A stretch of DNA of 64,000 bases from a virus (IMGVR_UViG_3300020576_005257:32001-96000), one strand, 5' to 3'; shown: positions 6,904 through 37,594, counted from the stretch's first letter. Translations and numbers: made by a program. The notes: generated from the sequence alone by a model not told the origin.

Positions 6904-7539
6904 ATGAGAATATACCACGGAGCTATTAGAGCATCAAAGGATTTAGATTTGACTAATCCCCTAGACAAAGACTTTGATGATCTTTGTAAATATTTAAAAG
7001 TTTTCTTTCCTGTAAACTTTATACCTAAACAATGTACCATTGAGTTTTATGATGATGTCTTGTTTCGAAGACCAGAGATCTTTACTTTAACCAGACAGAT
7101 TCCAGCTAAATACTTTGATTATGGATACATTGAAATTTATAAGGGTCTTGCTTACTGCATATATTTTCCTGATCAGGAAAATTTAACTATATATACTGTA
7201 CATAAATCTACTTATGTAAACTATTTGCAATCTCTGAAAGGAGAGTTTGATTTAGAAGAGTGTATTAATAGACTACCTAAGGATAATGATTGGATTTTTC
7301 TTTGTTCTAATTACTGTGAGACTTTAACAGGAACTGGGAATAAGATACATCCTTGTCCTCAAAGTTATCCTAGATCATTCCCCCTTTATTGTCAAACTAC
7401 TTTCTATAGAAAACTAGTTGCTTATGGTATTACTGCTAAAGGTATGAGATCTGTAATGACAATAATGAAAGAAACAGATAATAAAGTTTTAAACAAAACT
7501 GAAATACTTCCTGGAAAATCTGATTATTTTATGAAATAA
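6904..7539 (+). CDS. conserved-Cys paralog family member 1 (putative E2-like fold)
   Basis: YKGLAYCIYF...YVNYL...WIFLCSNYCE...PCPQSYPRSFPLYCQTTFYRKL. Paralogy is clear; the E2 call is inference. Confidence 0.45.
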   Translation: MRIYHGAIRASKDLDLTNPLDKDFDDLCKYLKVFFPVNFIPKQCTIEFYDDVLFRRPEIFTLTRQIPAKYFDYGYIEIYKGLAYCIYFPDQENLTIYTVHKSTYVNYLQSLKGEFDLEECINRLPKDNDWIFLCSNYCETLTGTGNKIHPCPQSYPRSFPLYCQTTFYRKLVAYGITAKGMRSVMTIMKETDNKVLNKTEILPGKSDYFMK

Positions 7540-7543
7540 AAAT

Positions 7544-8161
7544 ATGGATATGTATCACGGTGAGATTGTTGAAAAATTTTCTTTGGATTTAAATAATCCA
7601 ATAGATAAAAGTTTCCAGGAGCTTTGTTCATTTTTAGGTAATATATTCAAAGCAGAACAAACATTATCTAGAGTTCAAATCATTTTTTCTGATAGTGTTT
7701 TAGATGGGGAAGATTTTACAGAATTACGAAGAATTCCCTTCTCAAAACATGATGCTGAAGGTTATGGTTTAATCTTTGCTGGCACAGCATATGGTTTGAA
7801 ATTTACTCAATCAGCTATTTGTGCTTATGCAGTACACAAGCTACATTATAAAACCTACTTAGAATCTTTTGACGATCTTAATGTAGAGGAATTAATGTCT
7901 ATCTTACCTAAAGATAGTGACTGGGTTTTTCTAGCTGGAAATTACTGTGAGGTATTAAGAGGTAGCGAGGATGAAGTTTATCCCTGCCCAATGTCAAATC
8001 CTATCTCCTTCCCAGTATATTGTCAGACTACCTTATTAAGAAAACTATCAACTTGTGGTATTAAATCTACAGGACTTTCTTCAGTTATGCACATTTATGA
8101 TAGTGATGATGAATTAGTTAAAACTGAAGTTGAACCTGGGTTTAATGACAATTTTTGGTAA
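7544..8161 (+). CDS. conserved-Cys paralog family member 2 (putative E2-like fold)
   Basis: FAGTAYGLKF...WVFLAGNYCE...PCPMSNPISFPVYCQTTLLRKL; close paralog of 6904. Confidence 0.45.
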   Translation: MDMYHGEIVEKFSLDLNNPIDKSFQELCSFLGNIFKAEQTLSRVQIIFSDSVLDGEDFTELRRIPFSKHDAEGYGLIFAGTAYGLKFTQSAICAYAVHKLHYKTYLESFDDLNVEELMSILPKDSDWVFLAGNYCEVLRGSEDEVYPCPMSNPISFPVYCQTTLLRKLSTCGIKSTGLSSVMHIYDSDDELVKTEVEPGFNDNFW

Positions 8162-8352
8162 AAAACCAATGTGTGTTAATTAATAGATATTTAAAGCAAC
8201 AGAAAAAAAAAGGAATTACTTTAGATCTTTTTAAAGTACAAACAATTCCTGTTAAATTGTCTAAGGAACAAATATCTAAAGATAAGAAAAAAGAATATTA
8301 TTGGGATGACTTTGATTGTACTCTCCAATGTGAAGATTATTATAAAAGCTAA
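8155..8352 (+). CDS. hypothetical protein
   Basis: 65-aa ORF; start uncertain. Confidence 0.4.
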   Translation: MVKNQCVLINRYLKQQKKKGITLDLFKVQTIPVKLSKEQISKDKKKEYYWDDFDCTLQCEDYYKS

Positions 8353-8368
8353 GTAATCTACCAAAACT

Positions 8369-8557
8369 ATGAAATATCCTTATAGTGGCCTACTAATTGC
8401 TCAAGAAGCACCAGATTTTAACGATCCTCAGTACCAAAGACTCCAGGATATATTAAATAAAGTTTCTTTTCTTGAGACTTTTACAATACAAAAAATTACC
8501 AAAATGGGTGCAGCACCTAAAGTGTTAGCACATGGCAAGGGAAAAACTAATGCATAA
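8369..8557 (+). CDS. truncated N-terminal paralog of the conserved-Cys family
   Basis: YPYSGLL...PDFNDPQYQRLQDILNKVSFLETFTI aligns with the N-terminus of 8532 (SYCGLV...PDLEETDELQRLRDLVKRLSNIDHFII). Confidence 0.55.
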   Translation: MKYPYSGLLIAQEAPDFNDPQYQRLQDILNKVSFLETFTIQKITKMGAAPKVLAHGKGKTNA

Positions 8558-9212
8558 ATCTTATTGTGGACTAGTCTTAAAGTCTTGGCCTGATTTAGAA
8601 GAAACAGACGAACTTCAACGTTTGAGGGATCTTGTCAAACGTTTATCTAATATTGATCATTTTATTATTGAGGAAGCTATTTTATTAGCTGGACAGTATC
8701 AAAGAAAACGCCCTTTGTGGTATACCAAGCATACTTTAGTTAATACTAAAGGAGTAAAAGAAAGCTTACTTAGAACTGTATCCAAAAATTTTCAACAAGA
8801 TTCTAGTTATTATGGTGACTTGTTTAATTTTAATGAAAAAGGTTCAAAAGTCAGTGCTATGTATTTTGGTAAAGTTTACTCTTTAACATCAATGTATAGC
8901 TCAATTTTTGTTGTAACTAGAAAAAACTATTTAGAGTTTATTGCTGCTGTTGGTTCTCCAAATATCGAAGAAGTAGAGCGGCTTGTACCTGATTTTGAGT
9001 TCCTTCCAATTGATCAATCTTGGTGTTTATTGGCTCCAGGATTTAGTGCTGTGGATGAGCATGTTGCTATGTCACCAATATTATGTCCTATATCATTAGA
9101 AACATTTATTTATACTTATTATTTACAACAACAAATGAGATACAGCGGTAATAATCTTGTTAAAAAAGGAGTTATTTATGCAGATGCTAAAAATAGAGAA
9201 AGAATCGGTTAA
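8532..9212 (+). CDS. conserved-Cys paralog family member 3 (Cys replaced by Ser)
   Basis: YFGKVYSL...VTRKNYLEFI...WCLLAPGFSA...CPISLETFIYT. Confidence 0.45.
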   Translation: MAREKLMHKSYCGLVLKSWPDLEETDELQRLRDLVKRLSNIDHFIIEEAILLAGQYQRKRPLWYTKHTLVNTKGVKESLLRTVSKNFQQDSSYYGDLFNFNEKGSKVSAMYFGKVYSLTSMYSSIFVVTRKNYLEFIAAVGSPNIEEVERLVPDFEFLPIDQSWCLLAPGFSAVDEHVAMSPILCPISLETFIYTYYLQQQMRYSGNNLVKKGVIYADAKNRERIG

Positions 9213-9960
9213 AACGGAACTAACACAAGAAAATAAATCTGTAAGAACTCCAGTTCCTAACCCTAAACTTAGAGCTTACTCGGGAGTAAATTTAGATCAC
9301 ATACTTTTAGAATCTCCAACTTCTAAATTTGAAGAAGAAATTTTTAATACTTTGAAAAGATTTCCTCATACTGGAGATTATAAAGTTTATAAATGTCTTT
9401 CTGTTGTATATCAGAATTATTATTATGATACTTTCAAAAATTTTACTAATATTACCTTAATACCTTGTAAAGTAGCATTATTACCGAAAGATGTTACTAT
9501 AGATTCTTTTAAACAATCTTCTTCTTTATATTTTGCTCCTGGTTCGTTTAAAAGAAAAAAAATAGATAAATCTAAATATATTCAACTTGGTCAATGTCAG
9601 TATCAAGATGGTGAAATTTATATAACTTACTTTGGAATTTCTTATTGTATAGAAATTAGATCTATGAAAATAATTCTAGCTTCTACTCAAGACTACTTAG
9701 AATTTTTAGAGGCTATTGGTTGTATTAATTTGAATCTTGAAAAAGAGACTTTGGTTAAAGAATCTATCCAAGTAATTGGATCCTCATTTTGTAATGTAAT
9801 AGATGGAGAAGGTGCTCATATTTTTACAACACCTTTAACTAACCCAACACCATTTTTTACTTATTTGTGTACTACTTTACTTGGCCATCTAACACACTAT
9901 CTACGAGTAAAAGATATTGCTAAGCCTTTAGACTCTAGATTCAAATCAAATGTTGAATAA
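9157..9960 (+). CDS. conserved-Cys paralog family member 4
   Basis: YFGISYCIEI...DYLEFL...VIGSSFCN...TNPTPFFTYLCTTLL. Confidence 0.45.
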   Translation: MLKKELFMQMLKIEKESVKTELTQENKSVRTPVPNPKLRAYSGVNLDHILLESPTSKFEEEIFNTLKRFPHTGDYKVYKCLSVVYQNYYYDTFKNFTNITLIPCKVALLPKDVTIDSFKQSSSLYFAPGSFKRKKIDKSKYIQLGQCQYQDGEIYITYFGISYCIEIRSMKIILASTQDYLEFLEAIGCINLNLEKETLVKESIQVIGSSFCNVIDGEGAHIFTTPLTNPTPFFTYLCTTLLGHLTHYLRVKDIAKPLDSRFKSNVE

Positions 9961-9963
9961 AAA

Positions 9964-10917
9964 ATGAAACCTCCTCTTACTTATCATACTCAATTAGTTT
10001 TCTTTCCTCAACAAGGTGAAAACTTAACACCTAAAGAAATTCACTTAGGAGAATTTCTAACAAATCCTGGTCATTTTGCAAATCATAAGTTTTCATTTGC
10101 AGTTAACAAAGATGGAATTCTTTATTCTTTTGATGAAGTTTTAAAATATGCTTTAAAATCTAATGAAGAACTTGTTGAGGCAGTATTTAGTCGTGGTTCT
10201 TTGTCTCCTTATCCTAATGTTTATTTTTCTTCTTTACCTATAGAAGAACTAAGAAAAGAGATTACTTTTCAATTACCAGTCCAAACGTATGATTATTTTG
10301 ATGCTCTTAAAGTAAGAAATATTAAAGAAACATTTATTGAAAATTCAGCTGAAGACTTTCTCAAAAGTTTTTCTCATCTTCCCCATTTACAACAACTTTC
10401 TATGAAAGCTTTTCCTGTTGAAGTTAGGCAGGAAGTTTACAATACTAAGTATCATTATAAACTAGGTTGTCCTTCTACATTTAAATTTAAACACGGAGAA
10501 AAATCATTCCAAAGTTTTTCCAAATATAAGCTAAATAAAGCCGCCCACAAACTTCTTCTTCCAGATAAATTTTCTACTTCTTATTTAGGCCCAGCTTACT
10601 TTGTTTCTTTTGGTGATTTAAATCTATATATAGTTGTAGCTAAAAAATCTGATTATCTTAAGTTTCTTAAGTGGCATATTTCTAAGTTTAAGTTTTGGAA
10701 CTATTCAAAGATTAAAAAGCAGTTACCTGCTGGGGACTATGTTCTTATTAGTACTTCTTTCTGTGAGAGATTTGATGATTGTAAAGATGGTTCACCACCA
10801 CTTCCACATCAAAGAAATATGACCTTAGATTTATTCCTTTCAACTACTCTTGTTATATACATTAAACAGAAGCTTAGATCTTCTCTGATGTTAACAGGAA
10901 TTGTTTTTTCTAAGTAA
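9964..10917 (+). CDS. conserved-Cys paralog family member 5
   Basis: YLGPAYFVSF...DYLKFL...DYVLISTSFCE...LPHQRNMTLDLFLSTTL. Confidence 0.45.
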   Translation: MKPPLTYHTQLVFFPQQGENLTPKEIHLGEFLTNPGHFANHKFSFAVNKDGILYSFDEVLKYALKSNEELVEAVFSRGSLSPYPNVYFSSLPIEELRKEITFQLPVQTYDYFDALKVRNIKETFIENSAEDFLKSFSHLPHLQQLSMKAFPVEVRQEVYNTKYHYKLGCPSTFKFKHGEKSFQSFSKYKLNKAAHKLLLPDKFSTSYLGPAYFVSFGDLNLYIVVAKKSDYLKFLKWHISKFKFWNYSKIKKQLPAGDYVLISTSFCERFDDCKDGSPPLPHQRNMTLDLFLSTTLVIYIKQKLRSSLMLTGIVFSK

Positions 10918-10935
10918 AGTTATTTTTTTTCCATT

Positions 10936-10996
10936 AAAAACCTATTATGGTTAGGAAACCTTTAGGCTAAAAAAGCTTTATATGGTTTAATTACCA
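10936..10996 (+). promoter_or_regulatory. two copies of the recurring AAAA(A/G)C-N6-TGGT-hairpin element upstream of the Ubl candidate
   Basis: AAAAAC-CTATTA-TGGTT (10936-10952) and AAAAGC-TTTATA-TGGTT (10971-10987), each followed by an ACC that closes a short hairpin. Related copies at 5017, 5552, 6303 and 13155. Confidence 0.4.
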
Positions 10997-11017
10997 ACTA
11001 GTTAAATAGGCAAACGT

Positions 11018-11512
11018 ATGGAAAATGTCAATAAAGTCACAACCCTTCTCTCCAACAAGTCGTTGAATGAAGGAACCACCGTTATCCTGTCCCTCTCCAA
11101 CAATGGAGACGGCGGAAAGCGAATTTCTGTCAATGAGAACTTGACTCTTGGTGAGATTGGTGTAAACCCCCAAGGTGGAGCAGCTGCTGAGCCTTCATTC
11201 GCTGATGTGCAGCTTCGAGTTGCTCAAATCAGTGCTGGTGCTGGTACTCCTGATTCTAAGGCTACGGCTATTAGAGCAGAAATGGATAGCTACCAAGCTC
11301 AGGTCGCTCAGTTCAAGCAAGCTGGCGGTCAGAACATCACTGATCGAGTCATGCAGGGAGTCTGCAACTGGCTCGTTGCTAACAAGGGTTTCACTACTGC
11401 TGATGAAGCTGGTAAGCCGAGAATCTCGGCTGCTGATCTTCAAGTTACCGCTATCCAGACTCAGGGTGGCGAAATGGTGTTCAACGTCGTCGGTTCGTCT
11501 GTCTGGGGTTAA
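11018..11512 (+). CDS. candidate ubiquitin-like (beta-grasp) modifier with helical insertion and exposed C-terminal Gly
   Basis: N-terminal TTVILSLSNNGDGGKRISVNENLTLGEI resembles the beta1-beta2-alpha1 pattern. C-terminal strand GGEMVFNVVGSSVWG* ends in Gly. ThiF gene 1.7 kb downstream. Codon use is distinct from the rest of the window. Confidence 0.5.
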   Translation: MENVNKVTTLLSNKSLNEGTTVILSLSNNGDGGKRISVNENLTLGEIGVNPQGGAAAEPSFADVQLRVAQISAGAGTPDSKATAIRAEMDSYQAQVAQFKQAGGQNITDRVMQGVCNWLVANKGFTTADEAGKPRISAADLQVTAIQTQGGEMVFNVVGSSVWG

Positions 11513-11526
11513 TCTCCTTTCATGAC

Positions 11527-11675
11527 GACCCTTCGGGGTTTGGGTATAACTAATCTTCTCGTATAGGTAGATGCGAGTTGCCGAAAAAAGAAGTTTAAAG
11601 TCACATTATCAGTGGTTGGTGTGACTACTTCTTTATCATTGTAGTGCTACCGCTAGCAATAGTGGTAGCCTACAA
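11527..11675 (+). ncRNA. structured intergenic RNA element with four hairpins
   Basis: GACCC-TTCG-GGGTT (11527-11540); CTCGTAT/ATGCGAG (11558-11577); AAAGAAGT..AGTCACA/TGTGACT-ACTTCTTT (11587-11634); TTGTAG-T-GCTACCGCTA-GCAA-TAGTGGTAGC-CTACAA (11639-11675). Confidence 0.6.
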
Positions 11676-11707
11676 CTTTACAATTTATTTCTTAAAAACT
11701 AATTCTC

Positions 11708-13156
11708 ATGGATAACATTAAAGCATGGCTTAAAAAACATGGTATTGAATCTCATTATGCTCTAGGCCTTAGTGTTCTAGACTTAGCTCTTCTTACAATA
11801 CCAGCTGAAGGTGAAGCTGTTCTCAGCCGGAAATATTCTTCTCAGTCTAAAGCTATAAATCAAAATAGTAACTTTATTATTAAGAACAAAGTTATTTCTA
11901 CTGGAAAGATTGGTAAGAAGTTGGATAAGCCTTCTCAGTATGATGGTATTGATAGTTATATTGTTGACTTGAAACCATACAAAACCTTAGAAGAATTCCC
12001 AGTTGATGAAGATGGTTTGTTAGCTATTCCTAGTTTTATTCAAGAGTTACAATCTGGAAAACATCCTTTTTCTTTTCTGCTTAAACCTGATGGAACACCG
12101 CAAAATAATATTATAATTAATTTTTACAATCTTATTAGTTCTTACGCTTTAAATCCTCTAAGTTCTGAAAATAAAGAAATTGTTCCTTCTTTAACTGAAC
12201 ATGGATCTCAGTTTAAATTCAGGTTTCGCCCAGTACTTAAAACTACACAACTATTGATTACTGATACTGAATGGTATCAAAATATTGTGCATAATTTAGA
12301 AGTTTTAAGTCAAATTCTTCCTTATTCTAGATCTAGAGACTATTTAGCGGCTTTATGGAACTATCCTGAATATGTCAAAACTTCTACTGCCTCAGCCGAA
12401 ACTGAATATAACAAAAAACATCAATTCAGTCTTGAAGAGTTATATAAAGCTGTAGAAACTTCACACTACAAACAACGTAGTGGTTTTAATGCTGATAGAG
12501 CTTCTTATATAGAAGTTAATACTCCAGTTGAAGAGATTGAAAAGATGAAAGAACAGGTTCTACATCATTGTAGATTTATTCCTAATCTGGAAATTAAGGA
12601 TCTTAGAAAGATCAGCTTAGTTTATAACTCTGATGGTGATTTTGCTAATACAGCTGATGCAGTAAATCATCCTAAAACTAAGAGAGATATTGTTTGGTCA
12701 GCTAAAGAAGGTTACCATGTTGTTCCAGTAAATAAAGACTTAGGTCCGCAATGGGGTAGACCAGTAATCTATGTCGGGGAAGCTTGGAGAATTTACTTCA
12801 CAATTGGAGGTGTTGATTATTTACAAAATAACTTTGTTAACTTCGTCACTCCTGAACAATTCCTTGATTGTTATACCAAATTACGACCTGATCTTATTGA
12901 AGAAGGTTGGAAGCCATGGTCAGATTTAATTTTCATTTCAACTGATTGGTGTGAAAGAAATGGTGCTAGAGTTAAACAAACTACTGGTGCTATTGATTTA
13001 CAATCACCCCATCAAAAGAGAATTGCCTTGTGGCAATGGATTATTGGACCACTTGCAGGTAAATGTTTACAAAATGGAAAACCAATAACATCTTTGGGTC
13101 TTCAAGTAGTAAATGGTGCTGATCATAGTTCTCGTCTTAAGAAAATGATATATTAA
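11708..13156 (+). CDS. large member of the conserved-Cys family (putative cognate E2-like enzyme, domain in C-terminal ~140 aa)
   Basis: YVGEAWRIYF...FVTPEQFL...DLIFISTDWCE...SPHQKRIALWQWI; lies between the Ubl candidate and ThiF. Confidence 0.45.
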   Translation: MDNIKAWLKKHGIESHYALGLSVLDLALLTIPAEGEAVLSRKYSSQSKAINQNSNFIIKNKVISTGKIGKKLDKPSQYDGIDSYIVDLKPYKTLEEFPVDEDGLLAIPSFIQELQSGKHPFSFLLKPDGTPQNNIIINFYNLISSYALNPLSSENKEIVPSLTEHGSQFKFRFRPVLKTTQLLITDTEWYQNIVHNLEVLSQILPYSRSRDYLAALWNYPEYVKTSTASAETEYNKKHQFSLEELYKAVETSHYKQRSGFNADRASYIEVNTPVEEIEKMKEQVLHHCRFIPNLEIKDLRKISLVYNSDGDFANTADAVNHPKTKRDIVWSAKEGYHVVPVNKDLGPQWGRPVIYVGEAWRIYFTIGGVDYLQNNFVNFVTPEQFLDCYTKLRPDLIEEGWKPWSDLIFISTDWCERNGARVKQTTGAIDLQSPHQKRIALWQWIIGPLAGKCLQNGKPITSLGLQVVNGADHSSRLKKMIY

Positions 13157-13213: not shown

Positions 13214-13999
13214 ATGTATAACTTCCACTTAGTAGGAGCCGGGTCACTAGGTAGTGGCATCGCAATTGAAATCTCTCGCCGTCTTGCAGCTCTAACATGG
13301 CCAGCAAAGCTTGTTATTTACGATGATGATACAGTTGAAGAACGGAATATCTTCTCTCAAGATTTTCTTCCTTCTGACATTGGTAAAGCTAAAGCAGAAG
13401 CAGTAGCTGAGAAATGTGCTCAATACAACTTTGTGGAAGTTGAGTGGCAAAAGGTCCGAGTTGTTGAAGATAATATCAACAAGATTATGGAACTTGATCC
13501 ATTATCAATTATTATTGATGCAGTAGATAATATTGAAGCTCGCCACTTGCTTTGGTACCACACCCTTGCTACAGGTGTTCCTGTTATGCATATGGGAATG
13601 ACCCCAGAAGGAGCTGGTTTAATCAGTTGGACTTGTGAAACACATCATGATAGTTTCAATTTAAGTCCTATGAATATGACTGCTGAAAGTATTAAGCAGC
13701 TTACTTCTGCTCATGACAATAAAATGCCACCCTGCGAATTAAATGGTTTTAGATCTTTGATTTTGAATACCGTACTAGCAGGAGTAAATTCGTTATTTAT
13801 TGCTATTGGTAAAGATTCTTTAAAAGAAATCCAAATTGATGGTGAGCTTCAGGAGTCTCCTGGCACTCTCACTACTTGGAATACTCACATGAGGGGATTT
13901 GAACTTAATCCTCAAATTACTGCTGTAGTGCCTTGGCCAAAGAGTGAAGAGGAACTCTTTATCCTAGAAGCTCAAAGAATGGCTTTAGCAAATGCATAA
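13214..13999 (+). CDS. ThiF/MoeB/E1-family adenylyltransferase
   Basis: LVGAGSLGS nucleotide loop, IYDDDTVEERNIFSQDF, IGKAKAEA, IIDAVDNIEAR. Candidate thioester Cys in PPCE; no Zn-binding CxxC pairs. Confidence 0.9.
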   Translation: MYNFHLVGAGSLGSGIAIEISRRLAALTWPAKLVIYDDDTVEERNIFSQDFLPSDIGKAKAEAVAEKCAQYNFVEVEWQKVRVVEDNINKIMELDPLSIIIDAVDNIEARHLLWYHTLATGVPVMHMGMTPEGAGLISWTCETHHDSFNLSPMNMTAESIKQLTSAHDNKMPPCELNGFRSLILNTVLAGVNSLFIAIGKDSLKEIQIDGELQESPGTLTTWNTHMRGFELNPQITAVVPWPKSEEELFILEAQRMALANA

Positions 14000-16574
14000 T
14001 ATTGATCCACGGTTAGTAACTGATTTAGTTGCAGCTGTAAAACATAACTACGAACATAGAGGCTTACCCATGGCAAAAAAAGAAAATACAACTACTGAAC
14101 AAGTTATTGATAACACAGAGGAAAAAGTAATTATTCCTCCTGGGGATCAAGAAGCTGATACTCAAGAAGAAGTAGCCGTTGCTACTATTGATAAGAAGAA
14201 GGAAGAAGATTTAGGTGAAGTTTTTCCAAACGAAACTAATGTTTTAGTTGTTAGTCCTGGTTTAACTGATAAACATAAGTCTTGTCCATTTGGTGTAGTG
14301 AAATCTCATCACTATACTAATAATGGCGCATATCCTCCAGCCCTCCGGTATAAAATTTCATTCTTCCAGAACGAAGTTGAAGATTTAGTCGAATTTTTTG
14401 CGACTGAAGTTTATGACTTACAACGTATTCTTTCTGAAGATGTTCAAGTAGGGGATACTGCTTATCATAAACAGTCTGGAAAAGTTCTGAATATTACTCG
14501 TGTTACTGTAATTAACAATGAGGATAGAGCATTTGGTTGGTGGCGAGATGGAGTTACTGAAAAGTGTGAACATGTTTCAGTAAAAGATCTTTATCCACTT
14601 ATCAATTCCTTTACTGATCTTACTCAAAGAGGAAAAGTTCAACAAAGTGCTAAAGCTCCTAATACTTCAGCTTTGTTTACTTTGAACAACTCTAGTCCAT
14701 CTAAGGATTCAAGTAGTCAGAGTAGAATTGGTTATGGTGGAAGTTCTTCTAGTTCTGGTTCTGCATACTCTAGTACTAAAACTGGAATTCCAGTTATTGA
14801 TAATCATACTACTAGTAAAGATCCTATCTTAGTTGAAATCGTAGGTGGCGGTAAGTTTACTATTCAACTTACTCCTAAAGAACTTTTAAATGCAACAAAG
14901 GTTCTTGACTTTGAAATCATTGAATGCGGGGGAGATGATAATGTCTCTAAAGATGTTGTCAAACTTATCCTACCATTAGAACGGGCTAGATTTAGTAAAA
15001 CTACCAAAGAGGTACTTTGCTGTGCTTTTGATGCAACTAACGAGTATATGCAAACTATGGGCTTTGGTAAGCTTGGTTTTGCCGCACGAACTTGGTATAA
15101 AGCTCATCCTAAAACAGTCAGTAGTGGCCTACCAGCAGCGTTTACATTTAGTACTCTAAATGAACTAGTTGCTCCTTATGGCTTAGGTATTAGCCGAATC
15201 TTTATCAAGAAGGGGCTAGCTGCTTGGGAAGATACTAAAGCTTGGGAAGAGATTCTCGGAGTTAATCCTGCTGCATCTATGGATAAAACAGTATCTAACG
15301 CTGATTTTATTGATATGATGGGTGGGCCAGAAATGGCAGCTATGGCTGGTTATAATGTTAATGACTGGAGGTTGGAGTATGTAGATAATGTTCCTTCCGA
15401 TATTCCAAGAGTCGGTATGGCTGGTGCTAGTGGTGGATTTGCTTCTGGTGGGGGTCATGCTAGTTTCTACGAGCCCCGTCAACCCATGACAAATTGGACG
15501 ATGGCCTTACAATACGACAGGATTGAAAACTGCAATTGGAAAGGAGTTCCTCCAGTATTTGAATATGCTGATGGAGATTTTGTTCTGAATCTTGATATTG
15601 CTGAATGTCTTGATGTCAATGGAAAGAGACTCAAAGTTTCTGTCTATGACAATATGTCTATTGGACCAGATCCTAAAATTGGTTATTGGTGGGATCCTCC
15701 AACCTACAAAAGCTACACCCCGGCATCAAGCTCACATGGCGGGGGTCAGTCTCACTACAACTATGAAGAGTTTATGGGGAGCGACACAGAGCGTCCTAAA
15801 GGATCTCTTCCTTTAGGTGTGGAAAAAAAAAATCTAATAGACAAGAAAGGAAACTCCTCAGGGAGCAGCGGCGGATCAATAGCAGGAAACAGGAAGCTGA
15901 GCGAATGGATATCAAGCCGCAGCGACGAGGCAGAAGGTGTCGCAAGAATTCTCGCTAGTTTGACCCCTGGTGCTGATGAGGAACTGTCTATAATTCAAAA
16001 TGCTCTTTCTTATGACTCTATAAAAAAGATTGTTAAAACTCCTGATAAGCAGCCATTTTGGAAACACTCCAAAATGGCCCTTAAAAGGACATCTATTATC
16101 AATGCTGTAAAGTCAAGAAATAATCCTCAACTTGAATACATAGGATTGTTTACAGCTGCACTTGGTTATAATTTAGATTCATCAATTGATTGGGAATACT
16201 CTGATTTTCATTATGAGAAAAGAAAAGTTGACGTAATTGTTGATAAATTACTAATTGCATCTAAAAAGTTTGAATTTATTCAATGGTTTGATCTTTTAGT
16301 TGAATCTGATATTAACTCTGGTATAACCATGATTCAAGAGTTGGAAGGTGGTCTTGTCACCTTCCTTGAACTTATTCAAGATGGTGCTACTAGAGCTTTA
16401 ACTGATGTTCAAATTGAAGAAATGTTTATGATTGATCTTGAACCAATCATGGCCCTTCTTCATAAAGCTACTGTAGTAGAAAGAGCTGTTGTTCTTCTAC
16501 GATTAGCAGAACAGGAACCAGAAGAGATTATACTTTTCATGTTAACTCTCTTCATTCTTTTTGCATACGTATAA
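13992..16574 (+). CDS. 860-aa multidomain protein: SH3-like barrels, Ser/Gly linkers, possible Cys-His peptidase-like core, helical C-terminus
   Basis: VQVGDTAYHKQSGKVLNITRV..FGWW (SH3/YodC-like); EVLCCAFDATNEY and GGGHASFY; low-complexity linkers. Confidence 0.45.
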   Translation: MHNIDPRLVTDLVAAVKHNYEHRGLPMAKKENTTTEQVIDNTEEKVIIPPGDQEADTQEEVAVATIDKKKEEDLGEVFPNETNVLVVSPGLTDKHKSCPFGVVKSHHYTNNGAYPPALRYKISFFQNEVEDLVEFFATEVYDLQRILSEDVQVGDTAYHKQSGKVLNITRVTVINNEDRAFGWWRDGVTEKCEHVSVKDLYPLINSFTDLTQRGKVQQSAKAPNTSALFTLNNSSPSKDSSSQSRIGYGGSSSSSGSAYSSTKTGIPVIDNHTTSKDPILVEIVGGGKFTIQLTPKELLNATKVLDFEIIECGGDDNVSKDVVKLILPLERARFSKTTKEVLCCAFDATNEYMQTMGFGKLGFAARTWYKAHPKTVSSGLPAAFTFSTLNELVAPYGLGISRIFIKKGLAAWEDTKAWEEILGVNPAASMDKTVSNADFIDMMGGPEMAAMAGYNVNDWRLEYVDNVPSDIPRVGMAGASGGFASGGGHASFYEPRQPMTNWTMALQYDRIENCNWKGVPPVFEYADGDFVLNLDIAECLDVNGKRLKVSVYDNMSIGPDPKIGYWWDPPTYKSYTPASSSHGGGQSHYNYEEFMGSDTERPKGSLPLGVEKKNLIDKKGNSSGSSGGSIAGNRKLSEWISSRSDEAEGVARILASLTPGADEELSIIQNALSYDSIKKIVKTPDKQPFWKHSKMALKRTSIINAVKSRNNPQLEYIGLFTAALGYNLDSSIDWEYSDFHYEKRKVDVIVDKLLIASKKFEFIQWFDLLVESDINSGITMIQELEGGLVTFLELIQDGATRALTDVQIEEMFMIDLEPIMALLHKATVVERAVVLLRLAEQEPEEIILFMLTLFILFAYV

Positions 16575-16758: not shown

Positions 16759-17223
16759 ATGAATCACTCTAAGATAGATTTAGAAATTCTATTAAAGATT
16801 TCTGAGATTACTGGGAAGAAGTTTTTCTCTCCCAATTCCTCCAGACTGGAAGAATGTAGAGATCAAATTTTTGATCACTTAATTGATCTTTATTTGGATA
16901 GTAAAAAAACTGGTTTTAAATTATCTGAGTCTTATTGTTGGAAGGTTGCTATAAATCAAGCTTGTACTTGTTATCGAAAGATTAATAAAAGATCTTTTGT
17001 AGGTAATCTAGATTACCTAGTTGCTTCGTATCCTACAGAAAACTCTCTACTTGATCAAATTCACTTATCTATCTTAGCTAATAGTAATGACATAGATGGT
17101 GAAATAATTAATTTGTTAGCTGAAGGATACAAAAGAAAAGAAATTTGTAAAGAATTGAAGATAGTACCAAGTACCCTTAATACTAGGATTGATAGGAATA
17201 GGGGTACAAAATGGAAACTATAA
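16759..17223 (+). CDS. ECF-type sigma-factor-like protein
   Basis: Region-2-like LSESYCWKVAINQACTCYRK (cf. FSTWLYRIARNxxIDxxRK) and region-4 HTH EIINLLAEGYKRKEICKELKIVPSTLNTRIDR. Confidence 0.7.
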   Translation: MNHSKIDLEILLKISEITGKKFFSPNSSRLEECRDQIFDHLIDLYLDSKKTGFKLSESYCWKVAINQACTCYRKINKRSFVGNLDYLVASYPTENSLLDQIHLSILANSNDIDGEIINLLAEGYKRKEICKELKIVPSTLNTRIDRNRGTKWKL

Positions 17224-18587
17224 TCTACATTGGTGGGGAAATTGCTATCAAGAATTGTCCAACACATATTGCTCAGCAATTAAAGTTTCAAGCTACTTTA
17301 CCCAACCCTAAATACTATATGTGGGAAGCTAAAGCTTCCAAGAATAGTTGGTATAAAGATAATGTCTTACAACCTGAGAGAAACTATGTATACTGGAGGG
17401 AGAGTAAAGGTAATTTATATTTACCCAGAGGTATGTGGGATGCTGTTCTTTCTCTTTTACCAAATGCTAAAATTGTATCTTTACTAGTAGACCCCAAACC
17501 AGTTTCTCCCTTCCAGTTTAATGGTAAGTCATGGTATGGTCAAGCAGAAGCAGTAGACTCTGCATTACAACATAATTTTGGTTATGTACTAGGTCCTACT
17601 GGAAGTGGTAAAACATCTATAGGAATCCAAATTGCATGTAAACTTGGTTTAACTACTTTATTTATGGTTCATACTGATGCTTTATTACAGCAAGCTTATG
17701 AAAGAGTAGAAAAGTTTACTGGGTATACTCCTGGTTTAATAGGTGGTGGTAACTGGAATGTTAAAGATTTTACTATTGGTACCTTTCAAACCATATATAA
17801 AAAAGATTGTAGTTCTATTAAGAACAGCTTTGGCTTGGTAATTGCTGATGAATTTCATCATATGCAAGCTGAAACCTTTTTTGCAGCCGTTAGAAAGTTT
17901 AACTCTTTACATGCTTATGGTTTAACAGCTACTGATACTGGTAAGATGAAGTATATCAACTTGGCTCTTGGTCAGAAAGTAGCTGAAGTTGATAGAAAAG
18001 GTTTAGTTGAAGCTAAAACTATTTTGGAGGCTGAAGTATATGTAATCAAAACAGGATATAAAACTAAAAAAGAATATGAGAACTACGATCTTGCAAAGTT
18101 ATATACTGAGTTAGCTTCCTCTCCCAAAAGAAATAGTTTTGTTCTTGATCTTATAAAGAGCATACAGCCTGGAAGAAGAACTGTTATTGCTTCTCATAGA
18201 ATTGATCAACTGGATTGGTTTTATGAGCAATTAAAAGAATTTAATCCTGTATTATATCATGGAAAATTAAAAACCAAACAAAAAAAAATCTCTTTTGATA
18301 GAATGCAGAATGATGATGATAATCGTATAGTTCTAACTACTGTTCAGATTATTCAAGAAGGTTTTGATGCCCCCCATTGGGATCAATTAGTTATGGCTAC
18401 TCCTATTGGTGGGAGAGATGGCGTAGAACAACTTATTGGTAGAGTTGTTAGGAAGTCAGAAGGTAAGATGACTCCAAGAGTATTTGATCTGTTAGATAAT
18501 TCAATCTTAACAGAAACATGGCTTAACAATAGACTAAATAGATACGAGAAACTAAATGCAAAAGTCCACTTCGACAAAACGTTTTGA
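17211..18587 (+). CDS. superfamily 2 helicase (XPB/UvsW-like)
   Basis: GPTGSGKT, DEFHH, GLTAT, EGFDAP and QLIGRVVR motifs. Confidence 0.92.
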   Translation: METIIYIGGEIAIKNCPTHIAQQLKFQATLPNPKYYMWEAKASKNSWYKDNVLQPERNYVYWRESKGNLYLPRGMWDAVLSLLPNAKIVSLLVDPKPVSPFQFNGKSWYGQAEAVDSALQHNFGYVLGPTGSGKTSIGIQIACKLGLTTLFMVHTDALLQQAYERVEKFTGYTPGLIGGGNWNVKDFTIGTFQTIYKKDCSSIKNSFGLVIADEFHHMQAETFFAAVRKFNSLHAYGLTATDTGKMKYINLALGQKVAEVDRKGLVEAKTILEAEVYVIKTGYKTKKEYENYDLAKLYTELASSPKRNSFVLDLIKSIQPGRRTVIASHRIDQLDWFYEQLKEFNPVLYHGKLKTKQKKISFDRMQNDDDNRIVLTTVQIIQEGFDAPHWDQLVMATPIGGRDGVEQLIGRVVRKSEGKMTPRVFDLLDNSILTETWLNNRLNRYEKLNAKVHFDKTF

Positions 18588-19815
18588 ACCACTAACTTCT
18601 ATCCGTAGAATCAAGGATTATGAATTGCCTAAAACAATTCAACTTGCTGGGGAGGATACACCTATTCCAAAAAGACTTAGAAGAAAAGACATTTCTTATA
18701 CCTATATCACTGGTCCTGATGGAGCTGTTAAGCTTACTAGAACCTGTTGGATTACTCAGTCTTTATCTCATCTACTTAACGCTCAACGATTTAATGTTGA
18801 TGGCGAATTGTATGATAAAGAGAATCCTCATGGTTCCTTGACAACTTATGTTAATGAATTAATTCTAGCTAAAGAATGTGCTTTATCAACTATTGCTAGA
18901 ATGATTAAAGATGATGTTCTTAAAGACAAGAAAGGCCCAGGATTCATGGCTTTTGTACAATCTAATGAGAACGTTCCTGTAGGAAGTATTTTAATTACAG
19001 AAAGAACTTTACGGACTTTTCTAGTTCCACACAACAAAAATTGGAAGGATGCAAGTAAGGTCATCGTTACTAGGTTTCCCAACTTAGGTCCTAATACTAC
19101 AATTGAACTTAATTTATTAGTTCAAAAAGCTCCTAACAATTCCTATAAAGAGAATGCTTTAACTGAGCAATTAAAAGTGTTCTTGGATGAGAATATCGGT
19201 GTTCTTGAAGATGCAGAAGATTTAATGGATCCAGTATTCATTCACCCAGACATTTTGAAAGATTGTTTACAGGGTGATGGAGACGGAGATACTGTTTATT
19301 CTGTTATTTCAGAACAGAATGGAGTAAATTTTACTGACCTATCTCTTCTTAGAAATCCTGGCGAAGATCAGTTATTTGAAGATGAAATTGAGAAAGCTTT
19401 ACAAAAAGCTTCCAGATATGACGGTAAAACTATTTCTAATTATTTACCTCAACTATTTGATCAGTCTCCTATTGGTCCAGCCACCTATGCCATTAGAATG
19501 CAGGTTCACCAATTAGCTAAATCTCTTAAAGGAACTTGTGATCACCCAATGCATGAAGCTTGGAAACAGGTTGCTCCTTGGGCTATTGAGTTGATTGAGT
19601 TTGTTATGGATATTCGCAAAGGAGATTATACTACTGAGCAAATCCAAGATAATTTAAACCAAATTTCTGCGTGGAGTATAGCAATTAAAAAGGCTAAAGA
19701 AGATGGTTGTTGGTTTGCTAAAACTGTAACTACTAGTGATATTGGTTCCATAGAAGATTTTATAGAAACATTCCCAACACTTCAAGACTATGCAGATACC
19801 ATTTATGTTCAATGA
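18556..19815 (+). CDS. two-barrel RNA polymerase catalytic (beta-prime-like) subunit, highly reduced
   Basis: VIVTRFPNL (cf. VLLNRAPTL) and FIHPDILKDCLQGDGDGDTVY (cf. [20 protein letters not shown]); DxDGD at 19276-19290. Confidence 0.8.
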   Translation: MQKSTSTKRFEPLTSIRRIKDYELPKTIQLAGEDTPIPKRLRRKDISYTYITGPDGAVKLTRTCWITQSLSHLLNAQRFNVDGELYDKENPHGSLTTYVNELILAKECALSTIARMIKDDVLKDKKGPGFMAFVQSNENVPVGSILITERTLRTFLVPHNKNWKDASKVIVTRFPNLGPNTTIELNLLVQKAPNNSYKENALTEQLKVFLDENIGVLEDAEDLMDPVFIHPDILKDCLQGDGDGDTVYSVISEQNGVNFTDLSLLRNPGEDQLFEDEIEKALQKASRYDGKTISNYLPQLFDQSPIGPATYAIRMQVHQLAKSLKGTCDHPMHEAWKQVAPWAIELIEFVMDIRKGDYTTEQIQDNLNQISAWSIAIKKAKEDGCWFAKTVTTSDIGSIEDFIETFPTLQDYADTIYVQ

Positions 19816-20045
19816 AACATTTCATTAGCTCGTCATCCAAACCTAATTGTGCTTGTGGTAAAGAAGAACTTAATATATTTAGTTCTGAAGCTAGTCCTAT
19901 AGGGCTTTCAAATGATCTAGTTGATTTAAAGGAAGGATTTGATCCTTTCATTGTTAAATCTTTTTGTTCATGTGCTACAATACATACCTTCAAAGTTTTT
20001 GAAGGCAAGGAAAATCTCACTCCAATCTTCGTTAAACAACCATGA
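19812..20045 (+). CDS. small CxC...CxC Zn-ribbon-like protein between the RNAP subunits
   Basis: PNCACG...FCSCAT; ATGA overlaps with both RNAP-like genes. Confidence 0.55.
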   Translation: MKHFISSSSKPNCACGKEELNIFSSEASPIGLSNDLVDLKEGFDPFIVKSFCSCATIHTFKVFEGKENLTPIFVKQP

Positions 20046-21472
20046 GCGAACTCTTCAAAGTTAATTGTTCTCCGTATCTAGGCAGTGTTGAACAGCTGTC
20101 TCCTGAAATTGTTACTCTTTTATCTACCAGAGGAGATGTACAAGTTGCATCTTCTCCTAAAATAGTAACACCTATTCTTACTTATGACGAAGATGGGGAT
20201 TTTACATTTACAAAGGCTAGTACTATTGTAAGTAAAGCAATCCCAGAAAATAAGTATTACTCAGGATCTAAGGAATATTCTCCTGAACGGATTGCTGATG
20301 TAATTTACTCTAGAACACAAAAGAATCTAGAATCTTATCCTTTTCTACCTACCTACAAAAATGGAGATAAAACATCTTATCATCCATTAGCTCTTTTAAA
20401 TTATTACGATTTAGTCCGGTTACAACCAAGCCCCGAACTTGCTACTAGACTTATGAGAGAAGATTTCAATGGTCAAGGTAAACTAAAGGCTAGTAGTTTA
20501 GACAAGTTAAACCAAAGATTTTTTCACTTTTTTAAGAAAGAACTGGATCTTTATTCAGTTCCAAAAAGAGAAATTGGTACTTTCTGTAATATAGCTTATA
20601 CAGGAAACTTCAATCGACTAGCCTGGCATCTTGGTTTTGGAATGGCAAACTGCATTCCAAGAGATAGAATTGCTAGAGAGGCAAGTAGTCTTAAATCTGC
20701 TGAACGATTTCTAAATCCAGTTGAAGTACCTTTTGGTGATTTTCCTAAATTCTGTGGTCCATATATTACTATGCTTCGTGTAGCTTTTATAGCTACTGAA
20801 ACAAGTATGCTTGACTCAGGAGATCTCATGCCAAGTGCTTTTCCTAGAATTGCTTGTAAGCTATCCAAAATTCACAAAATTAAGGATCTAAAAGCTGCAC
20901 AAGAACAGTTTGGTTCCTTAAATATATCTAAACAAGCATCTAGAGCTGGTATTGAGTTGACTCATGATATTCTGGAAGAGTATGACGAAACTCATTTGCA
21001 TCCTGGTGCTATAAGATTTGTATTTCCAGGTGGTCTTAAAGTTAATACTCACTGCTTAGATACTAAAATCCAAGCTTATACTAATGATCAAGAAGAAGTT
21101 GACTTGTTGCTTGATATTAGAAGTATTACTTCTAAAGGTGCTGCTGTACTTTTAGCTATGCAGGATCCAAGATTTGCTGGAAAAGATATGAATTTTGAGG
21201 AGTTACGTCAAGTTATTCCTCAACTCAAAAAACAACAAGTTAGGGTAGGTGCTATGAAGTACTCTGCCTACGTTGGCTGGTTACCAGTGATGAGACCTGG
21301 CCAACGCTATACTGATTTTAGCAAGCCTACTAATGACATTCCAAATGACATTATTGCTAAAGCTATTATGAAACAACGATTTGACATCCCAGAAGAGCTT
21401 GAAAAGCACTATGCTGAGATGGTTCAATATGTCTCCTCCCTTACGAGTGAAATCAATGCTATCCAAAGTTAA
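20042..21472 (+). CDS. two-barrel RNA polymerase beta-like subunit, highly reduced
   Basis: Motifs in canonical beta order: LRVAFIATETSMLDSGDL (cf. VAFMPWNGYNFEDSIL), PGAIRFVFPGGLKVN (cf. GDKMAGRHGNKGV), DQEEVDLLLDIRSITSK (cf. GTPVDIVLNPLGVPSR), AYVGWLPVMR (cf. VTVGYMYMLK). Confidence 0.7.
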   Translation: MSELFKVNCSPYLGSVEQLSPEIVTLLSTRGDVQVASSPKIVTPILTYDEDGDFTFTKASTIVSKAIPENKYYSGSKEYSPERIADVIYSRTQKNLESYPFLPTYKNGDKTSYHPLALLNYYDLVRLQPSPELATRLMREDFNGQGKLKASSLDKLNQRFFHFFKKELDLYSVPKREIGTFCNIAYTGNFNRLAWHLGFGMANCIPRDRIAREASSLKSAERFLNPVEVPFGDFPKFCGPYITMLRVAFIATETSMLDSGDLMPSAFPRIACKLSKIHKIKDLKAAQEQFGSLNISKQASRAGIELTHDILEEYDETHLHPGAIRFVFPGGLKVNTHCLDTKIQAYTNDQEEVDLLLDIRSITSKGAAVLLAMQDPRFAGKDMNFEELRQVIPQLKKQQVRVGAMKYSAYVGWLPVMRPGQRYTDFSKPTNDIPNDIIAKAIMKQRFDIPEELEKHYAEMVQYVSSLTSEINAIQS

Positions 21473-34699: not shown

Positions 34700-35260
34700 A
34701 TGAGTTATATGTTTTCTGGTGCTATTGGTAATATTGACAAACAAAGAAAGAATTTCCTTCAGGTTGAGAAAGAGATAAGAGAATTATTTCTCCCTTTAGG
34801 ACATCTCTTCAAAATAAAAAATATTAAGGAAGTACATGCTCAGCTCCATACTGACTATAAAACAAAGTATGTTGAACGGCGTAGAATTCCTTTAAATGCA
34901 TCTATGTATCTAGGACCAGCTTTTGAAATAAACATAAATACTGGAGACTGGGATACTGCTATTTTTGCGGTAACGAGAGATGATTATTTAACTTATATTG
35001 AAACCATCCAAAAAAATAAAGATATAGTTGAGGAAATTAAAGAACTTATTCCAAAAGATAACTTAATCTACTTAGGTGCAAGTTATTGTGAGGTTCTTAA
35101 AAAATGTATTGAAGGAACAGTTCCCTGTCCTGTATCTAATCCTAGAAGTTTGAAAGCTTATATATATGGTAATCTTGTTCAAAAGTGCTATGATAGTGGA
35201 AATAGAAATAAAATTAATAGGGCAGTAACATTTTCTAAGGGCAGAAAAATAAGAATCTAA
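34700..35260 (+). CDS. conserved-Cys paralog family member 7 (dispersed copy)
   Basis: YLGPAFEINI...VTRDDYLTYI...LIYLGASYCE...PCPVSNPRSLKAYIYGNL. Confidence 0.45.
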   Translation: MSYMFSGAIGNIDKQRKNFLQVEKEIRELFLPLGHLFKIKNIKEVHAQLHTDYKTKYVERRRIPLNASMYLGPAFEININTGDWDTAIFAVTRDDYLTYIETIQKNKDIVEEIKELIPKDNLIYLGASYCEVLKKCIEGTVPCPVSNPRSLKAYIYGNLVQKCYDSGNRNKINRAVTFSKGRKIRI

Positions 35261-35769: not shown

Positions 35770-36888
35770 ATGAATGAATATTTAACATTTGATGACGTTT
35801 TGATGCGTCCTAATTATTGTGGTTTTGAATCTAGGAAGGATGTTTCTACTAAGACTGTTTTAGTACCTGGAAGATTGGAACTTGAAATTCCTATACTTAG
35901 TTCACCTATGGATACTATTACAGGTCCAGAGATGTGTGTTAAGATGAATGAGCTGGGTGGAATGGGAATTCTTCACCGATTCTGTTCTATTGAAGAGAAT
36001 GTTAAAATGTTTAATAGAGCACATGAGATACAATTTCAATTAAATGCCAATCATGGTGTTTTAAATATAGGTGTTTCAGTAGGTGTTAATGAGGGGCTTG
36101 ATAGAGCTACTGCTCTTTGGAAAGCTGGAGCACGAATTTTCTGTGTAGATACTGCTCATGCACATTCTAAACTTGCAGGAAGGATGGTGCATTCTTTAAG
36201 GACCGAATTTGGTGACGAGATCATTATTATAGGTGGTTCGGTTTGTACCTATGCTGGTAGTGATTATTTAGTTAGCAAGGGTGCTGATATTATCAGAGTT
36301 GGTATTGGGCCAGGTGGTTTTTGTTTAACAAGAACCCAAACAGGATTTGGTTTACCACAGTTTTCTACCTTGCAAGAATGTGCTAAGTGTTCTAAGCCTA
36401 TAATTGCAGATGGAGGCATTAAACAGCCTGGTGATGTAGTTAAGGCTCTTGGTATTGGAAGTGCCTGTGTGATGCTAGGAAGTATGCTAGCGGGCACATT
36501 AGAAACACCAGGCGAAGTTATCTATGAAAATAGAAATGGTACAAGGCTTCCAGAAGAGATTAAACAAAGGCCTATGCCACCATTACCTATTGAAACTAAT
36601 GTAGCTACTTACTATCCCTTTAAAGCTGCCAGGGGAATGGCAAGTCGCAGTGTTGTTGAAGAGATGTATGGTGAAATGCCTGATTGGAAGACTTATGAAG
36701 GAATATCAACTATGGTTCCAGCTAAAGGATCAGCTAGTGAAGTAATTCAAAACATCATTGGTGGTTTAAGATCAGGCTTAACTTATGCAGGTGCTAAGGA
36801 TCTTGAAGAACTTAGAAGAAGAGTTGACTTTGTTAAAATTACCCCAGCAGGTAGAATTGAAAGTGGAGCACATATTTTAGGAAAATAA
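35770..36888 (+). CDS. IMP dehydrogenase / GMP reductase family enzyme lacking CBS domains
   Basis: LTFDDVL, SSPMDTIT, GMGILHR, DTAHAHS, VGIGPGGFCLTR, IIADGGI, MLGSMLAG, GMAS, GGLRSGLTY. Confidence 0.93.
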   Translation: MNEYLTFDDVLMRPNYCGFESRKDVSTKTVLVPGRLELEIPILSSPMDTITGPEMCVKMNELGGMGILHRFCSIEENVKMFNRAHEIQFQLNANHGVLNIGVSVGVNEGLDRATALWKAGARIFCVDTAHAHSKLAGRMVHSLRTEFGDEIIIIGGSVCTYAGSDYLVSKGADIIRVGIGPGGFCLTRTQTGFGLPQFSTLQECAKCSKPIIADGGIKQPGDVVKALGIGSACVMLGSMLAGTLETPGEVIYENRNGTRLPEEIKQRPMPPLPIETNVATYYPFKAARGMASRSVVEEMYGEMPDWKTYEGISTMVPAKGSASEVIQNIIGGLRSGLTYAGAKDLEELRRRVDFVKITPAGRIESGAHILGK

Positions 36889-36889
36889 T

Positions 36890-37594
36890 ATGGATTATAG
36901 GAATCAATTATATAGCGTACAAAAAGTATCAGATACTCTGGTGTTAGCAACACAAAAAGATGAAAACATTGAAGAGCTAAGATCTCATTTTAAGAAATTA
37001 GGTTATGAGAGAATTAGATGTTATAAAGGATTTGGTACTTTAGCAGGATCCAATTATGAGAACCAACGTAAAATTAGAATAATTCCTCCTGTTCTTGGTT
37101 ATCCAAAACCAAATGAAGACAACTGTCTTTTAGAAAACTATGTTATTCAATCTAGAGATTATGGTCATTGTCATCTTTATATTGGTCCAATTTATAGTGT
37201 AAGATTACCTTATTCTGGTGGTTCTAGAGCTACATATATGCCTTTTGGCTTTATTCTCAGAGATGATTACTTAGCTTTTCTTAAAGCAATTAATACACCA
37301 AAAAAAGATTATCAAGAAATTTTAACTATAATTCCTGACACTAAATTTATTTACTTGTGTTCTCAAATGTGTGAACAATTTGACCGTAACCATATGGGAA
37401 CTATATGCCCAGTTTCAAAACCGCGATCATTAGAGAATTTCCTTTATACAGTTCTTCTTCAAAGAATGGTTGATCATAATTACAAAATGCTCCCTAAAGG
37501 TATAACTGTAGTTAATAAAGGTGGATCCAATCTTAGAAAGGCTTTTTCTGATCCAGGAAAACAAATTGTGTCTGCAAGACAAATAAAACGATGA
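36890..37594 (+). CDS. conserved-Cys paralog family member 8 (dispersed copy)
   Basis: YIGPIYSVRL...LRDDYLAFL...FIYLCSQMCE...CPVSKPRSLENFLYTVLL. Confidence 0.45.
   Translation: MDYRNQLYSVQKVSDTLVLATQKDENIEELRSHFKKLGYERIRCYKGFGTLAGSNYENQRKIRIIPPVLGYPKPNEDNCLLENYVIQSRDYGHCHLYIGPIYSVRLPYSGGSRATYMPFGFILRDDYLAFLKAINTPKKDYQEILTIIPDTKFIYLCSQMCEQFDRNHMGTICPVSKPRSLENFLYTVLLQRMVDHNYKMLPKGITVVNKGGSNLRKAFSDPGKQIVSARQIKR

Follow-up and report, generated by a model that had tools for sequence, protein, structure and literature searches.

The bacterial ubiquitin-like protein (Ubl) systems Bil and CBASS-Cap2 (CBASS, cyclic oligonucleotide-based antiphage signaling system) are anti-phage defenses. To our knowledge, all Ubl conjugation cascades in which the tag passes from an activating enzyme (E1) to a carrier (E2) use a carrier with the UBC fold. 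Iyer, Burroughs and Aravind are said to have described, in 2006, classes of related four-gene ubiquitin-like conjugation operons. Here we examine a stretch of viral DNA, IMGVR_UViG_3300020576_005257:32001-96000, in which an E1-like enzyme and a small protein whose terminal Gly is conserved adjoin a member of a protein family that carries an invariant Cys. The window, as this whole stretch of 64,000 nucleotides is called below, represents bases 32001-96000 of an IMG/VR virus record that is 234,927 bp long and, by estimate, 95% complete. It has a G+C content of ~33%, nearly all of its open reading frames (ORFs) lie on the plus strand, and positions are counted from its first letter. What is new here is a putative prokaryotic, phage-borne Ubl-E1 cassette in which an unrecognized protein family holds the carrier slot.

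An initial annotation of this stretch had grouped eight of its genes into a conserved-Cys paralog family and proposed for them an E2 fold with a helical insert. The functional idea behind that proposal gains strongly from the gene context, in that an E1 and a Gly-ended protein adjoin the longest family member in a genome without a recognizable E2; this context favors an E2-like role for that member. The structural idea fares differently, with no sign of a UBC fold. We tentatively favor a reading in which the family may carry or ligate a ubiquitin-like tag of the phage without the UBC fold, and would be E2-like in its role and not in detectable ancestry or fold.

A conserved four-gene cassette

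The cassette consists of a tag of ~160 residues, a family member of 430-650 residues (the long form), a ThiF/E1-like enzyme and a further protein of 430-860 residues, and it is present in eight phage contigs. In the window its genes are the following.

11018-11512, plus strand: candidate ubiquitin-like tag, 164 residues, directly upstream of the long form, with the end ...GSSVWG-stop
11708-13156, plus strand: long form of the Cys family, 482 residues, the conserved cassette member; Cys415 (codon 12950-12952)
13214-13999, plus strand: ThiF/E1-like adenylating enzyme, 261 residues, directly downstream of the long form; Pfam ThiF match at 1.3e-15
13992-16574, plus strand: fourth cassette protein, 860 residues, with a conserved core of ~210 residues at about 14964-15593

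The contigs, which were obtained for distant family members and tag homologues, belong to uncultured phages and are 117-250 kb in length. The order tag, long form, ThiF and large protein holds in the window and in L009, L010, L013/L014, L015/L016, L022 and L023 (contigs of relatives are given with the prefix L), and contig L017 carries the order tag, ThiF, long form and a 430-residue protein. Two further contigs, L011 and L021, stop short of the ThiF position. This synteny persists down to long-form profile matches with expect values (E) of 1e-8 (L010) and 2e-6 (L015), and to ~27-31% identity of the E1s with one another and of the tags with one another. Among GenBank phages the region is unmatched by DNA, and the long form and the tag are unmatched at the protein level. 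Our literature searches found no paper on this cassette.

The enzyme at 13214-13999 is the sole ThiF protein of the genome. Its best NCBIfam matches are the ThiS and MoaD adenylyltransferases (ThiF, 1.4e-16), with 6A-MBL cap2_3 at 1e-10, and it also matches the active adenylation domain of Uba1 in the PDB (2e-6), the E1 part of the E1-E2 (Cap2) models in PADLOC (1e-7) and the PADLOC BilD model (9.5e-5). Six orthologues share the intact motifs of an E1, specifically GxGxxG, Asp37/Asp39, Arg44-Asn45, Lys60, Asp105 and Cys174 in PPC[EM]L (codon 13733-13735). Genome-wide searches of the 95%-complete record revealed no UQ_con, Prok-E2_A, Prok-E2_B, Prok-E2_D or Prok-JAB protein. Because the genome is without a recognizable E2, the Cys family is the candidate for the carrier, if a carrier exists.

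The candidate tag ends in Trp163 and Gly164, both of which are invariant in an alignment of six tag sequences. The WG pair is kept in all 15 representatives of the tag clusters, where it is terminal in 10 and followed by R, R, K, A or DI in the other 5, and an extra tag copy, on the contig fragment L014, has MG at its end. When a short tail that varies comes after a conserved Gly, this classically points to a modifier activated at its Gly once it has been trimmed, and the extra C-terminal residues of some tags would give them the usual look of a processed ubiquitin-like precursor.

The fourth cassette protein carries Ser/Gly-rich linkers around a core that is retained even in the 430-residue relative encoded by L017. 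Invariant in this core are a Cys, two His, an Asp, an Asn and an Arg, with the motifs CCAFDAT, W[YF]xxHP and GHA, and no match for the protein was found in Pfam, PDB, PHROG or PADLOC. The invariant residues make it a candidate Cys peptidase or ligase; that it might be a Cys peptidase in particular is only a guess.

The affinity of the E1 for ThiS and MoaD adenylyltransferases raises the prospect of a sulfur relay, in which the WG protein would be a ThiS/MoaD-type carrier, ThiF would adenylate it, and the family Cys would carry a persulfide that turns the WG protein into a thiocarboxylate, for a phage thio-modified nucleotide or cofactor. A domain with a single conserved Cys suits such chemistry, as does the absence of JAB and E2 proteins from the genome searches. 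The residues that follow the tag Gly could be accommodated as well, given that some sulfur carriers, such as CysO and QbsE, are also precursors made with extra C-terminal residues. However, the tail is WG and not GG, the tag has roughly double the size of ThiS or MoaD, and it is difficult to see why a persulfide shuttle would exist in four to eight copies whose N-termini diverge fast. Moreover, neither a rhodanese, a cysteine desulfurase, a sulfur-inserting enzyme, a ThiG/ThiH protein nor a MoaE-type protein was found among the neighbors scanned by Pfam or in the gene tables of relatives. We regard the sulfur relay as quite unlikely.

The conserved-Cys paralog family

In addition to the long form, the family has seven shorter members in the genome, which are listed below together with a small ORF that resembles one of them.

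6904-7539, plus strand: short paralog 1, 211 residues; Cys138 (codon 7315-7317); 45% identical to paralog 2
7544-8161, plus strand: short paralog 2, 205 residues; Cys135 (7946-7948)
8369-8557, plus strand: ORF of 62 residues, the first 43 of which resemble the N-terminus of paralog 3
8532-9212, plus strand: short paralog 3, 226 residues; Cys165 (9024-9026) in the motif QSWCL; the database relative begins 6 residues later
9157-9960, plus strand: short paralog 4, 267 residues from a TTG start; Cys212 (9790-9792); the database relative has 260 residues
9964-10917, plus strand: short paralog 5, 317 residues; Cys267 (10762-10764)
34700-35260, plus strand: short paralog 7, 186 residues, the smallest complete member; Cys130 (35087-35089); motifs YLGPAFEI and ASYCE
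36890-37594, plus strand: short paralog 8, 234 residues; Cys161 (37370-37372); motifs YIGPIYSV and SQMCE

An IMPDH/GMP-reductase-family gene (35770-36888, plus strand; Pfam 2e-94) lies between paralogs 7 and 8. The 62-residue ORF overlaps the start of paralog 3 in a different frame and is 30% identical to it over 43 residues, with an E of 4e-4 against a database of only the eight family sequences; it is probably the remnant of a partial tandem duplication.

As judged by sequence comparison, the eight genes are a true paralog family, because the presence of the motifs, the alignments, BLASTP, the long-form profile and a genome scan all agree. The eight strand motifs and the seven Cys motifs listed by the initial annotation occur where it implied, and the eighth Cys motif, which it did not list, is QSWCL. 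The seven short forms are linked to one another by BLASTP, most pairs at 1e-53 to 1e-4, and the BLAST tie of the long form to them is weak (0.004-0.03). A profile built solely from long forms of other phages retrieves four of the short forms among 348 ORFs, at 3e-11 (paralog 7) to 2e-3. Exactly eight copies were found by scanning the entire 234,927-bp genome. The interval 6904-13156, within which all eight had been placed, holds six of them, and the two at 34700-35260 and 36890-37594 lie outside it.

When the eight proteins are aligned, either at full length or over their C-terminal ~130-160 residues, the only invariant residues are one G, one C and one P. The P-x-S-x-P-x-S-[LF] pattern ascribed to the family is clear in full in about four members, and only its second P is conserved throughout. 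Similarly, the block of motifs is indeed shared, but the true unit is larger and takes in a helix and a strand that are N-terminal to the block. The long-form profile aligns to the short forms of a related phage from about their residue 31-38, which corresponds to the long form from its His287 helix onward. Because the short forms align from this helix on, the real shared unit is, by these alignments, about 200 residues in length.

A profile of the eight members finds 54 clusters at E<=1e-3, and 21 at <=1e-10, among 1.84 billion representatives. Exclusion of two low-complexity repeat proteins from these 54 leaves an alignment of 52 sequences. Most clusters are proteins of 430-650 residues that bear the domain at the C-terminus with a sharper motif, PWSDLIFISSDWCERNG ... 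GIDLQTPH. Scanning IMG/VR with long forms added one further locus. As far as the searches show, the family is confined to a clade of uncultured jumbo phages. No family in Pfam, PHROG, NCBIfam or PADLOC matches the paralogs, the tag or the fourth cassette protein.

The Gly is present in 52 of the 52 aligned sequences, and the Cys and the Pro in 51 each; within the window the Cys is kept in 8 of 8 members. Next in conservation are Tyr355, Asp406 (40 sequences, with Glu in 4 more) and Glu416 (42, with Gln in 5 more), and near-invariant across the long forms are D87, H287, Y306, D406, R417 and W444. Two simple roles for the Cys were considered and rejected. That it is a metal ligand, an outcome raised by the initial annotation, was dropped because the 52-sequence alignment contains neither a second conserved Cys nor a conserved His in the shared domain. 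A CX5R phosphatase or rhodanese loop, as might be read from CERNGAR in the long form of the window, was dropped because relatives do not conserve the Arg at +6.

The conserved acidic residues Asp406 and Glu416, which flank Cys415, invite the alternative that the domain is a cysteine hydrolase or transferase, either a peptidase that processes the tag or removes it from conjugates, or a ligase of the transglutaminase kind, and not a passive carrier. The near-invariant His287 of the long forms lies within the same confidently modeled unit, and the five tag representatives (of 15) that extend beyond the Gly would need trimming. Nevertheless, this His is not conserved in the short forms of the window, searches by sequence and fold listed no chain of the papain-like, rhodanese or transglutaminase kind, and a peptidase is more readily seen in the fourth cassette protein, whose Cys, two His, Asp and Asn are invariant. 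A hydrolase or transferase thus described is unlikely.

Relatives have multiplied the gene as well: extra family copies number three in L009, four in L010 and four in L011, and L021 carries at least five long forms in tandem.

L021:5870-14352: tag (ending in WGDI), two pentapeptide-repeat proteins and at least five tandem long forms of 461-474 residues

A maximum-likelihood tree places the short forms of each phage together, with support of 90/80 for the seven of the window, 95/94 for the four of L011 and 82/65 for the four of L010, and the long forms constitute a slower-evolving group. Because its branches are long and many of its forks are weak, the tree indicates a tendency rather than proof. 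Among the tandem copies of L021, identity is 66-80% across the Cys domains but only 24-38% across the N-terminal parts for five of six pairs, a pattern that fits a catalytic or docking module that stays constant while the recognition module attached to it varies. The suggestion that the variable N-termini recognize substrates is in keeping with this one result.

Lineage-specific expansion of this kind is also typical of arms-race genes, and the family might be unrelated to tag chemistry and merely syntenic with the E1, for example as a tagging target, a regulator of the E1, or an anti-defense or structural family under diversifying selection. No member has a function assigned by homology, and two paralogs reside 21-24 kb from the cassette, beside the IMPDH/GMP-reductase-like gene. 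Yet the synteny of long form, tag and E1 is preserved in eight contigs despite deep divergence, and across that divergence 51 of 52 members retain the single Cys. We consider such an unrelated role doubtful.

Fold of the Cys domain and its proposed role in tagging

We found nothing in favor of the proposed UBC/E2 fold and its helical insert: Pfam, PDB-sequence profiles, hhalign, Foldseek and VIA-align gave no E2 match. At E<=1, Pfam searches of the eight proteins returned no E2 family, and at E<=10, searches of all 52 members returned no UQ_con, no Prok-E2 and no recurrent family. When the whole genome was searched with PF00179, PF14461, PF14460 and PF14457, nothing matched at E<=1, with Prok-E2_C and Prok-E2_E covered by the Pfam scans alone. 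The initial annotation had noted that the canonical HPN is missing, and indeed there is neither an HPN-like motif nor a conserved His or Asn upstream of the Cys; column statistics place D/S/N, W/Y/F and S there, in a strand of the L-I-F-I-S type. Since some accepted E2s (Atg3, Atg10 and Ufc1) also lack HPN, its absence alone does not exclude E2 membership.

An AlphaFold model of the domain has a predicted local distance difference test score (pLDDT) of 85 and a predicted template modeling score (pTM) of 0.77, and a model of the full-length long form is confident over residues 241-470. The elements of the latter run in the order helices, several antiparallel hairpins, the Cys and C-terminal helices, which is loosely E2-like. 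Together with the E1 and tag context, this order would suit a true, very divergent member of the UBC/E2 family with an inserted helix and its conserved Cys at the active-site position. Given the searches above we judge such membership very improbable, and the likeness of YxGxxF to the E2 strand motif is most likely a coincidence.

The preferred reading, a non-UBC carrier or ligase, suggests a route for the tag. The one or two residues beyond the tag Gly, where present, would be trimmed. The E1-like enzyme, whose motifs are intact, would then adenylate the terminal Gly, after which the tag would pass to Cys174 of the E1 as a thioester. From there it would be transferred to the invariant family Cys, Cys415 in the long form, in a domain that would act as a carrier or ligase and be an analogue of E2 with no detectable UBC fold. 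Finally, the fast-diverging N-termini may choose the targets, such that each added paralog would contribute an added class of targets; here these paralogs are the seven short forms, and relatives have four or five copies. The tagged proteins could be those of the host or of the phage.

Complex prediction provides weak support for contact between the partners. Alignments of the E1, of the tag and of residues 238-482 of the long form were the input, and the long form was the partner scored. The median score was 0.54 (runs of 0.79, 0.54 and 0.01), compared to 0.11 for the best control, in which an unrelated protein took the place of the E1. At least 15% of contacts are common to the runs, and the partner pLDDT is at least 73. 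The mark used was passed by 58 of 80 solved complexes and by 2 of 110 mismatched pairs; with scores of 0.60 or under, it was passed by only 7 of the 80 solved complexes and by both of these mismatched pairs. Because the score falls once the E1 is replaced, there is a hint, and only a hint, that the predicted interface lies with the E1.

Several observations weigh against the proposed carrier role. The role stands on the gene neighborhood and a single conserved Cys, and the searches run connected the domain to no E2, E3 or other thioester carrier, either by sequence or by structure. PDB-sequence profile searches with alignments of the family, the tag and the fourth cassette protein produced only chance-level rows (E >= 0.035). 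An hhalign comparison to one Prok-E2_D protein of a plasmid, obtained by looking at ThiF neighbors on plasmids, gave a probability of 0.08%, a weak comparison because its template is a single sequence. Foldseek searches of the PDB and VIA-align with the two AlphaFold models gave no E2 or other credible match, with the complete ~245-residue unit not folded or searched alone. The tag matches nothing in Pfam, PDB sequences or Ubl families. The short forms that begin at 8532, 9157 and 9964 are missed by the long-form-only profile and are linked to the family solely via other short forms. The complex score lies within the weak range, and no interface was found in one run of the three. Furthermore, a carrier is not required, because E2-independent Ubl systems exist, as exemplified by Urm1 and the archaeal SAMPs.

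On a broader and more speculative level, this jumbo-phage clade could possess its own Ubl tagging, with a structurally new Cys domain as the carrier and with a range of targets widened by carrier copies that have varied N-termini rather than by E3 ligases. If true, a non-UBC carrier would mean that the step from E1 to carrier was invented more than once, and it would offer a new handle for detecting hidden tagging systems. A phage version with many target-specific carriers would also suggest that viruses tag proteins of the host, or their own, in infection, possibly as a counter-defense. Whatever the mechanism, this is a rare, unannotated four-gene cassette that includes a domain without a structural match in the PDB.

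Neighboring genes and comparison with known systems

Downstream of the cassette, the window carries the genes listed here, and the last row gives blocks upstream of the tag gene in relatives.

16759-21472, plus strand: HTH (helix-turn-helix)/sigma-region-4-like protein, ResIII/DEAD helicase, then unassigned proteins of 419 and 476 residues
21381-23882, plus strand: ATPase (PHROG 1297), then DUF2201 VWA-like protein/putative metallopeptidase
L015:4068-9051, L016:1202-4621, L022:2264-2752 and L023:2667-7791: Macro/NAD-related blocks

A Sigma70_r4 gene also follows the cassette in L009 and L010, and a DUF2201 gene likewise comes after the cassette region in L009. A Macro-domain gene is positioned between a few hundred bases and ~5 kb upstream of the tag gene in L015, L016, L022 (a weak Pfam match) and L023, NAMPT/NAPRTase genes are near the tag in L015, L016 and L023, and NUDIX genes are present in L015 and L023. 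These genes suggest that an NAD-salvage or ADP-ribose block adjoins the cassette in these four relatives; no Macro, NAMPT, NAPRTase or NUDIX domain was found in the few upstream genes of the window that were scanned.

The cassette resembles several described systems in part. With ThiS/ThiF and MoaD/MoeB it shares the strongest family matches of its E1, the small size of this enzyme and the lack of a ubiquitin-fold domain in it. In contrast, the phage tail is WG rather than GG, its partner has double the length, the scanned phage neighbors include no genes for sulfur transfer or biosynthesis, and the cassette adds two conserved large proteins, one of which is multiplied.

In the Atg12/Atg7/Atg10 system the modifier ends in a single Gly after an aromatic residue, with no Gly-Gly, and the E2s lack HPN. 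The WG end of the phage tag is likewise an aromatic residue and a single Gly, although this is a resemblance only. Atg10 and Atg3 have a UBC-derived core that fold searches recognize, whereas the phage domain yields no such match.

The E1 domain of Cap2, which operates with Cap3 in type II CBASS, is the best PADLOC match of the phage E1. Cap2, however, has an E2 domain fused to its E1 and conjugates the cyclase itself, whereas the phage E1 is a bare protein of 261 residues and the candidate carrier is separate and without a fold match.

Bil (BilABCD) is likewise compact and combines a ThiF-type E1, a small Gly-ended protein, a Cys protein in the E2 slot and a large protein in the peptidase slot, and the phage E1 matches BilD as noted above. 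The differences are that the phage cassette has neither a UBC-type E2 nor a JAB peptidase, and that its tag is ~160 residues in length, ends in WG and matches no Ubl family. Unlike Bil, the cassette is carried by phages instead of host defense islands, and the gene in its E2 slot has been multiplied four to eight times.

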